Shown here: piece by piece, positions 51,244 through 51,318 of the stretch | Position numbering within the stretch: position 1 is the first letter of the stretch | Layout: each line of letters opens with the position of its first letter | From: Escherichia coli | GTDB taxonomy: Bacteria > Pseudomonadota > Gammaproteobacteria > Enterobacterales > Enterobacteriaceae | Length of the DNA stretch: 64,000 nucleotides | Strand: one strand, 5' to 3' | Assembly (NCBI RefSeq): GCF_044324785.1 | Contig: NZ_CP172127.1 | Position numbers and translations under genes: made by a program | Notes under the pieces: model-generated | What the model was told of the DNA's origin: nothing | What the model saw: only the letters and a program-made list of their open reading frames with translations | Databases searched by the model: none

Positions 51244-51318
51244 AGACGCTTACGCATTAGAAATCTGGTGTGCTTTAATTAAACCAGTGTAGCTGATGTG
51301 TAAGCGTTGATGTTGGGA
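51244..51318 (+). repeat. palindrome-bounded ~75-bp element downstream of gene A (copy 1)
   Basis: acgcttac (51246-51253) ... gtaagcgt (51300-51307) inverted arms around an inner ctggt/accag hairpin; ~80% identical to 55604..55680. Confidence 0.6.

Follow-up and report, generated by a model that had tools for sequence, protein, structure and literature searches.

A candidate transcript-end hairpin behind two effector genes of the Escherichia coli Z5211-Z5214 islet, apparently doubled with a larger DNA segment

Introduction

Why does the same palindrome-bounded element stand behind two paralogous effector genes in one chromosomal islet of Escherichia coli, and what could it do there? The question was raised by a window of 64,000 nucleotides, which is the whole stretch of DNA analyzed here and belongs to an E. 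coli chromosome (99.8% identity to strain N3). A preliminary description made from the sequence had noticed a ~75-nt element after each of two paralogs, referred to below as A and B, and had proposed several roles for it. The genes in the window follow the order pstSCAB-phoU (+), A, copy 1 of the element, a pentapeptide-repeat gene, B, copy 2, yieH, and adeP (+). The islet is the known E. coli Z5211-Z5214 islet of the phoU–yieH interval, which occupies that place as an alternative to the K-12 bgl-yieLK-cbrCB islet, has a G+C content of ~30%, comprises ORFan genes without mobilization functions, and is found in ~19% of strains (PMC2646131). In the window, the G+C content amounts to 31% for the islet, 41-45% for the hairpin element, and 52% for yieH. 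The features on which the analysis is based are as follows.

48763..51183, plus strand: paralog A, annotated in strain N3 as "type III effector protein", espY5-like (Z5214 type), 806 aa, 30% G+C
51240..51244, minus strand: plus-strand A-run, read on this strand as a U5 tract that adjoins the copy-1 hairpin on its 3′ side (sequence, minus-strand folds)
51245..51308: hairpin copy 1, between the convergent genes A (+) and pentapeptide-repeat (-) (fold)
51324..51457, minus strand: yieH relic adjoining copy 1, with stops, frame changes, and an internal deletion of ~250 nt (tblastn, E=3e-9)
51432..51544, minus strand: cbrC relic, codons 14-50, with two in-frame stops (tblastn, E=3e-14)
51656..52840, minus strand: pentapeptide-repeat gene, whose transcript heads leftwards through the relics to copy 1
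53140..55548, plus strand: paralog B, T3SS effector EspY4, 802 aa (annotation)
55605..55669: hairpin copy 2, between the convergent genes espY4 (+) and yieH (-), the outermost islet sequence at the right junction (fold)
55685..56350, minus strand: yieH (6-phosphogluconate phosphatase), whose stop lies 15 nt before the copy-2 hairpin on this strand

Results

The effector genes and their surroundings

The A and B proteins share 36% identity over 580 aa, their C-terminal 220 residues being unalignable, and A is 87% identical to P0122. In some strains A is a pseudogene, being frameshifted in L042 and called espY5′ in EDL933. A search of 1.84 billion proteins returned 38 cluster representatives of the EspY4/EspY5 family at E<=0.001, three of them full length and the others fragments, all apparently derived from the Z5211-Z5214 locus. 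All 120 close relatives listed for EspY4 were E. coli proteins; no EspY4-family homologs were found in other species, which left no cross-species set for covariation analysis, and NCBIfam models gave 0 matches to A and B.

Several other features of these surroundings were observed. A 34-nt direct repeat (88%; 51055-51088 and 51184-51217) spans the A stop codon, and just past this stop the codons for ILNDVITGISR are repeated from 129 nt upstream, which suggests that the A allele of the window strain has a changed 3′ end or underwent a small duplication; strains such as L044 differ around the A stop and the 34-nt repeat. Approximately 115-240 nt upstream of A and B, the 25-nt motif AATGAGCGATTTTTTACAGTATTCA is found on the plus strand (48524-48548 and 53008-53032), the copies being one mismatch apart with 0 expected by chance. 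A partial inverted copy (52900-52920; 21 nt, 90% complementary) precedes the divergent pentapeptide-repeat gene, and the motif also lies upstream of the third effector gene of contig L043 described below (4761-4785, 92%). The motif AATGAGCGATTTTTTACAGTATTCA is a candidate shared promoter or operator element. Directly past phoU, the segment 48237-48279 matches K-12 pst-operon intergenic sequence (L002 14411-14453, 81%; 16443-16461, 95%) and is probably a REP-type repeat at the left islet edge.

Both copies are predicted to form strong hairpins

The reported identity of about 80% between the two ~75-nt copies is borne out by their alignment (62 identical columns of 77, 80.5%), and the coordinates in both copies agree with the reported inverted-repeat bounds, the inner CTGGT/ACCAG hairpin, and the shared CTGATGTGTAAGCGTTGA. 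In copy 1, ACGCTTAC occupies 51246-51253 and GTAAGCGT 51300-51307, with CTGGT at 51265-51269 and ACCAG at 51283-51287; the corresponding positions in copy 2 are 55606-55613, 55661-55668, 55625-55629, and 55644-55648. The 18-mer CTGATGTGTAAGCGTTGA is present at 51293-51310 and 55654-55671, with 0.05 chance occurrences expected in the window. Copy 2 also contains the 15-nt arm pair with one mismatch that had been ascribed to it, the mismatch being T.T. The element was said to follow the paralogs immediately, but it starts 61 nt past the A stop and 56 nt past the B stop.

Folding of both copies, which had been suggested as a check, gave strong hairpins. As plus-strand RNA, copy 1 folded at -30.1 and copy 2 at -33.0 kcal/mol (z -5.8 and -6.4), with shuffled sequences averaging -15 to -16 kcal/mol and 0 of 200 folding as well as the real copies; on the minus strand, the values were -18.5 and -30.9 kcal/mol, respectively, and z ranged across strands from -4.8 to -6.4. 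In the predicted copy-1 structure, a lower stem of 16 pairs, which include G.U wobbles when read on the plus strand, is separated by an internal loop from the CTGGT/ACCAG upper stem, which is capped by a 13-nt loop; in copy 2, the lower part consists of a stem of 9 pairs and another of 6 with a U.U mismatch between them, below an upper stem of 8 pairs that contains a bulge. The hairpin persisted when flanking sequence was added to the fold and was strongly folded in all 13 natural haplotypes described below, the plus strand being the more stable one in every copy-1 haplotype. A generic terminator scan passed over the full hairpin, whose loop is above the limit of the scan.

The earlier statement that no U-tract follows the element holds for the plus strand, where UUGAAGUA and UUGAUGUU lie beyond the hairpins, but fails on the minus strand, where the copy-1 hairpin is followed by UUUUU (AAAAA at 51240-51244 on the plus strand). 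Past the hairpin, the minus strand reads U5 in copy 1 and also in L043; most copy-1 haplotypes have U4 there, and copy 2 has CUAUUCCCUAU. Since the upstream A-run is limited to copy 1 and L043 and no T-run is present downstream on the plus strand, the flanks lack the symmetry of a bidirectional terminator.

Some smaller candidate features were considered and rejected. A small plus-strand terminator within the element (5′ mid-arm plus CTGGTG, with a U-rich loop), flagged by the scan in both copies, folds at -2.8 to -8 kcal/mol with non-significant z, and neither the commonest copy-1 haplotype nor L042 retains it. A small ORF behind AAGGAGG past copy 2 has no usable start codon, and copy 1 has GGGAG with different downstream sequence. 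No consensus match to an IHF-type site was found by reading the arm sequence. Among the Rfam 15 covariance models, the best match was to a eukaryotic miRNA model (21.7 bits versus a gathering score of 88), and membership of an Rfam family was rejected because the matches were at noise level only. No published description of the hairpin element was found in the literature searched.

The element is confined to one islet

A sensitive blastn search with copy 2 found the element in 1108 of 5426 complete E. coli genomes, which are the genomes carrying the islet. The further genomic copies for which a search had been proposed did not appear: the element was located only in the islet, in no more than two places per genome, and on none of the plasmids of these 5426 genomes. 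The single match in the plasmid collection was to a 4.9-Mb record that is evidently a chromosome, leaving 0 true plasmids, and the phage collection gave 0 matches. An exact search with CTGATGNGTAAGCGTTGA across one genome per species (100,044 species) returned 39 matches versus ~35 expected by chance, and the 5′ arm was present in only two of them, both E. coli contigs binned into a Collinsella MAG. These contigs, L030/L031 (JAIJJM010000244.1, JAIJJM010000384.1; MAG Collinsella sp. Map_57_008), carry copies 1 and 2, which shows E. coli contamination of that bin. A dispersed repeat or MITE is ruled out by this copy number and distribution.

From the window, the complete genomes, two look-ups by protein, and a metagenome scan, 51 copies were gathered, comprising 31 distinct sequences as 128-nt windows and 13 distinct hairpin haplotypes. 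All of them lie in the same two contexts with the sole exception of L043 (Logan ERR3329175, 4250-8135), which carries bglB-bglH-yieL-yieK, an adeP-like relic (50 nt, 4518-4565, 82-84%), a third effector gene, the hairpin, and an intact yieH. The third effector, P0123, is encoded between yieK and yieH, has 775 aa, and shares 49% identity with A and 32% with B; the same hairpin thus trails a third effector type, adjoining yieH. The L043 copy is chimeric, with a copy-1-type upstream flank and a copy-2-type interior that switch inside the shared 5′ arm, and from the start of the element onwards the L043 locus is 97% identical to the window. This third haplotype of the locus is rare, and none of the 5426 complete genomes was found to carry it.

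The chimeric L043 copy is the sole hint of the recombination or module-delimiting role that had been among the first suggestions. In its fullest form, this alternative holds that effector cassettes were exchanged beside yieH through the element, which would act in DNA as a site of recombination or as a mobile-element terminus (attC-like, MITE-like, or an IS terminal hairpin). It would fit the position of the element exactly at the islet/core junction, the abutment of three different effector genes on the hairpin at one point, and the switch within the shared 5′ arm of L043. It is opposed by the restriction to at most two copies per genome, with none outside the islet, in phages, or in real plasmids, and by the chance-level matches in representative genomes of 100,044 species. 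There is also no matching copy at the left islet end, no integrase or transposase annotated in the islet, and no visible target-site duplication, the flanks of the two copies (AAAAAG/TGATGT and AATAG/TGAAGT) having no direct repeat in common; the published account describes the locus as free of mobilization functions (PMC2646131). By sequence reading, the attC cores RYYYAAC/GTTRRRY are absent on both strands: GTTGAAG and GTTGGGA fail at the last position, and no RYYYAAC partner occurs on either strand. An attC site or IS end was rejected on the missing core motifs, the missing recombinase, and the missing copy at the left end. Membership of a known recombination family is thereby largely refuted, and we consider a recombination site of any kind very unlikely.

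Relics of yieH and cbrC place copy 1 in a duplicated segment

The similarity is not limited to the ~75-nt element first described but continues into the 3′ end of yieH (51235-51337 versus 55595-55698, 78.8%). The A and B blocks are homologous in collinear order, and the homology continues beyond the element on both sides, with the similarity of the element extendable to 51363/55724. Identity between the blocks is 72.8% in the promoter-proximal stretch, 66-70% in the coding pieces, 78.8% in the element with the yieH 3′ end, and 79.6% in the yieH internal piece. In the yieH relic, the last codons, AVWKGHSSDIT* (ALWKARGWNITR* in the live gene), are joined to a piece corresponding to YieH residues 102-129, and the internal piece 51370-51418 matches resident yieH 55972-56020 at 79.6% (blastn). 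The cbrC relic shows 77.9% nucleotide identity to K-12 cbrC, with such matches in about 3500 genomes. The two relics adjoin each other in an order that is not the native one, marking a junction of rearrangement or duplication, and are unmentioned in the paper describing the locus (PMC2646131).

The presence of yieH and cbrC relics beside copy 1 indicates that the hairpin repeat belongs to a segmental duplication carrying the islet/core junction, and that the hairpin occurs twice because a larger DNA segment as a whole was duplicated. Instead of a repeated unit attached to each paralog, as first described, the element appears to have been doubled as part of a segment with the effector gene and the yieH 3′ end; what stands at copy 1, as read from the sequence, is a paralog of the entire islet/core junction and not an element inserted after each gene. 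An old segmental duplication in the islet would have copied an effector gene together with the hairpin and the 3′ portion of yieH next to it, and may have proceeded either as a tandem duplication with one end inside cbrC and the other inside yieH, later reduced by deletion, or by ectopic copying. The rearrangement that gave the islet its two effector genes has left these relics as a fossil.

The islet/core junction and the yieH alleles

Copy 2 had been placed at the right islet junction, and comparison with bgl-type strains confirms this position: homology between bgl-type and Z-type strains extends beyond the yieH stop by ~20 nt and ends with ACTCCC/CCTCC in the 5′ arm of the bgl-type hairpin, which makes copy 2 the outermost islet sequence. 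In bgl-type strains, irrespective of the yieH allele, the hairpin past yieH is a different one, and cbrB follows it. This bgl-type hairpin lies at the matching place and folds at -29.4 kcal/mol (z -5.8). In the K-12 yieH-cbrB spacer (L002 3446-3505), its 3′ arm holds a GGGAG ribosome-binding site directly upstream of the cbrB start, and the K-12 hairpin could couple cbrB translation to its structure.

The yieH gene of the window is 81% identical to K-12 yieH (L002 2775-3440), with only 68% in codons 37-111; the corresponding values for adeP, yieF, phoU, and pstB are 96-98.6%. The arrival of yieH with the islet, considered on the basis of the 81% figure, was withdrawn, as bgl-type strains carry alleles 92.6-95.3% identical to that of the window. 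With 3108 genomes falling into the 80-90% identity band, sequence comparison indicates a deep allelic dimorphism of yieH within E. coli, the divergent class not being tied to the islet.

Conservation of the arms and pairing of the strands

Selection on structure had been proposed from arm complementarity that seemed to be kept despite differing 5′ arms, together with a covariation test on additional homologs. In that test (24 pairs, 31 distinct sequences), 0 pairs had changed on both sides and the score equaled that of shuffles. The absence of compensatory double changes undoes the covariation argument, and the low diversity of the 31 sequences gives the test little power. In the window, the 3′ arm is identical in both copies and the two 5′-arm differences are uncompensated: copy 1 has wobble pairs at these positions (G.U or U.G), and copy 2 has one U.U mismatch and one C-G pair. 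The copy-1 bases concerned (G and T) are minority variants of certain copy-1 haplotypes only; the majority copy-1 haplotype has the same 5′ arm as copy 2.

That the element is under constraint is nevertheless supported by the stem arms, whose conservation far exceeds that of the loop and of the sequence on either side. Between the consensus of copy 1 and that of copy 2, 0 of 32 arm positions differ (two 16-nt arms), compared with 37 of 97 positions elsewhere (Fisher p=3e-6), the latter comprising 9/33 in the interior, 13/25 in the upstream flank, and 15/39 in the downstream 39 nt. The copies of the window alone give 2/32 versus 37/97 (p=3.5e-4), and the 3′ arm alone, which is free of search-pattern constraint, gives p=1.2e-3. 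With the arms identical and the interior between them diverged, a simple gene-conversion tract is disfavored.

These comparisons bear on the alternative that the hairpin is a functionless palindrome carried by the duplication, with arms kept alike by gene conversion or hairpin-templated repair. The element clearly lies within the larger duplicated block, covariation is absent, and the stem carries disruptive variants in some lineages (G.G in L042 copy 2, A.C in L070, and A.A in all copy-1 sequences, in addition to U.U in 25/31); the TTGGT variant common to L042 copies 1 and 2 is compatible with conversion. A conversion tract would not, however, leave out the middle of the element, where the arms are identical and the interior diverged, and the strong contrast between the arms and the rest as well as the strong folding retained in every haplotype also stand against a mere passenger, which we consider unlikely.

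Invariant inverted arms could also be those of a palindromic operator, that is, a double-stranded DNA site for a dimeric regulator. Arms of 15-16 nt placed ~34 nt apart are unlike operator geometry, the element lies at the 3′ ends of all neighboring genes and away from promoters, and the separate AATGAGCGATTTTTTACAGTATTCA motif preceding A and B makes the stronger candidate for an operator; this reading is therefore highly implausible.

In the 24-pair model, 93.7% of the cells are paired on the plus strand versus 86.7% on the minus strand (copy 1, 93.1% versus 83.8%; copy 2, 94.6% versus 90.7%). All five one-sided pair changes place C/U opposite G on the plus strand, so that G.U pairing is kept there and an A.C mismatch arises on the minus strand. 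One-sided C-to-U changes that keep plus-strand pairing and break minus-strand pairing favor a role of the plus-strand RNA, at least in copy 1.

Discussion

The element is real, conserved, and probably functional, and most likely of an ordinary kind rather than mobile or new. Among the roles first suggested, that of a 3′-end stabilizer (or terminator) is the preferred one, and we regard it as moderately likely that the element is a transcript 3′-end hairpin, terminator or stabilizer, serving both convergent transcription units. On the minus strand, the hairpin and the U or pyrimidine tract that follows would act as an intrinsic terminator, for yieH at copy 2 and, with U5, for the transcript of the pentapeptide-repeat gene at copy 1; the terminator scan found no other terminator-like site between that gene and the copy-1 hairpin. 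On the plus strand, which has no U-tract, the hairpin would block 3′ exonucleases and thereby set and stabilize the 3′ end of the effector mRNA, this capping coming after Rho-dependent or read-through (downstream) termination. The hairpin would also limit collision with the convergent gene. Blocking of exonucleases by 3′ hairpins is a mechanism known in general. Against a terminator stand the stem of ~25 pairs and the 13-14-nt loop, well beyond a typical intrinsic terminator, the missing U-tract on the plus strand, and the weak minus-strand tract of copy 2 (CUAUUCCCUAU).

The perfect identity of the arms exceeds what a terminator needs, and a sequence-specific ligand or concerted evolution may be involved. 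The element might accordingly be a plus-strand 3′-UTR RNA element of the effector family, in which a sequence-specific partner controls mRNA stability or yields a 3′-derived sRNA; candidate partners would be RNase III, as a nuclease of long duplexes, and proteins that bind hairpins, such as ProQ or Hfq. Arms that are invariant between modules whose proteins share 36-49% identity, the presence of the hairpin behind all three effector types, the one-sided stem changes compatible with G.U pairing on the plus strand only (5/5), the greater stability of this strand in every copy-1 haplotype, and a lower duplex of ~16 pairs that together with the upper stem nears the length of an RNase III substrate are all consistent with such an element. 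The strand asymmetry, however, comes from ~7 events, mostly copy-1 C-to-T transitions, and could be produced by mutational bias; the copy-2 strands are about equally paired (94.6% versus 90.7%), neither covariation nor an Rfam match was found, and A is pseudogenized in some strains (L042, EDL933). On this evidence, we find a dedicated regulatory partner improbable.

A broader form of this idea is that the hairpin is a recognition element specific to the ORFan effector family, either a 3′-UTR signal or a DNA structure for the swapping of effector cassettes beside yieH. Such an element would explain invariant arms amid gene divergence at the level of 36-49% identity as well as the joining of three effector genes to the hairpin at one nucleotide; we nevertheless think it decidedly unlikely. 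If the arms were indeed a specific recognition site, they would offer a handle on post-transcriptional control of the effectors, but the present evidence needs no such site.

With the transcript-end hairpin as the preferred reading, the element is a candidate 3′ boundary of the espY4 and espY5 transcripts and also a candidate for insulating yieH, a core gene, against the AT-rich islet, which is presumably silenced by H-NS. The relics show that the Z5211-Z5214 islet grew through segmental duplication at the islet/core junction, which adds to the history of the bgl/Z locus (PMC2646131). Beyond the locus, the significance of these observations is small; the candidate boundary and insulator would be useful if the poorly studied espY4/espY5 effectors are examined.

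Comparison with known systems

Palindromic repeats of the REP/BIME, ERIC/IRU, and MITE types resemble the element in being intergenic, ~70 nt long, and located after genes. They differ from it in that the element is present as two copies in one duplicated block, without target-site duplication or a family match. Integron attC sites are likewise imperfect palindromes of 60-80 nt after each gene of a variable array; here, however, R″/R′ cores, an integrase, and a cassette array are absent, and core-gene relics trail copy 1.

The element shares with intrinsic terminators a stable stem-loop that lies from a few to some tens of nucleotides past the stop codons of convergent genes (A (+) versus the pentapeptide-repeat gene (-), and espY4 (+) versus yieH (-)), a G+C-rich stem base (ACGC/GCGU), and, on the minus strand of copy 1 and L043, a U-tract directly after the hairpin. 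It departs from them in its stem of ~25 pairs with internal loops, compared with the usual 5-14, in having no plus-strand U-tract, and in the weak minus-strand tract of copy 2. Protective 3′ stem-loops stop 3′ exonucleases, as on Rho-terminated transcripts and REP-stabilized mRNAs. The likeness to these lies in a strong 3′-UTR hairpin without a U-tract on the effector strand and in wobble variation that keeps plus-strand pairing; unlike the REP-type examples, the element is not a REP sequence and is unique to one islet.

A further comparison is offered by the K-12/bgl-type yieH-cbrB hairpin. Its sequence is different and unalignable past the spacer, in which the Z-type retains ACTCCC of the bgl-type 5′ arm, and in K-12, unlike in the window, the gene that follows, cbrB, is co-directional and has its ribosome-binding site covered by the 3′ arm. 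The K-12/bgl-type hairpin nevertheless starts ~9-15 nt past the yieH stop, is of similar size and energy, and has a similar layout, in which stems of 8 and 6-7 pairs flank a mismatch and a small hairpin forms the apex. The presence of an unrelated hairpin of like size, energy, and layout after bgl-type yieH suggests that a strong 3′ hairpin is a functional requirement at this site.
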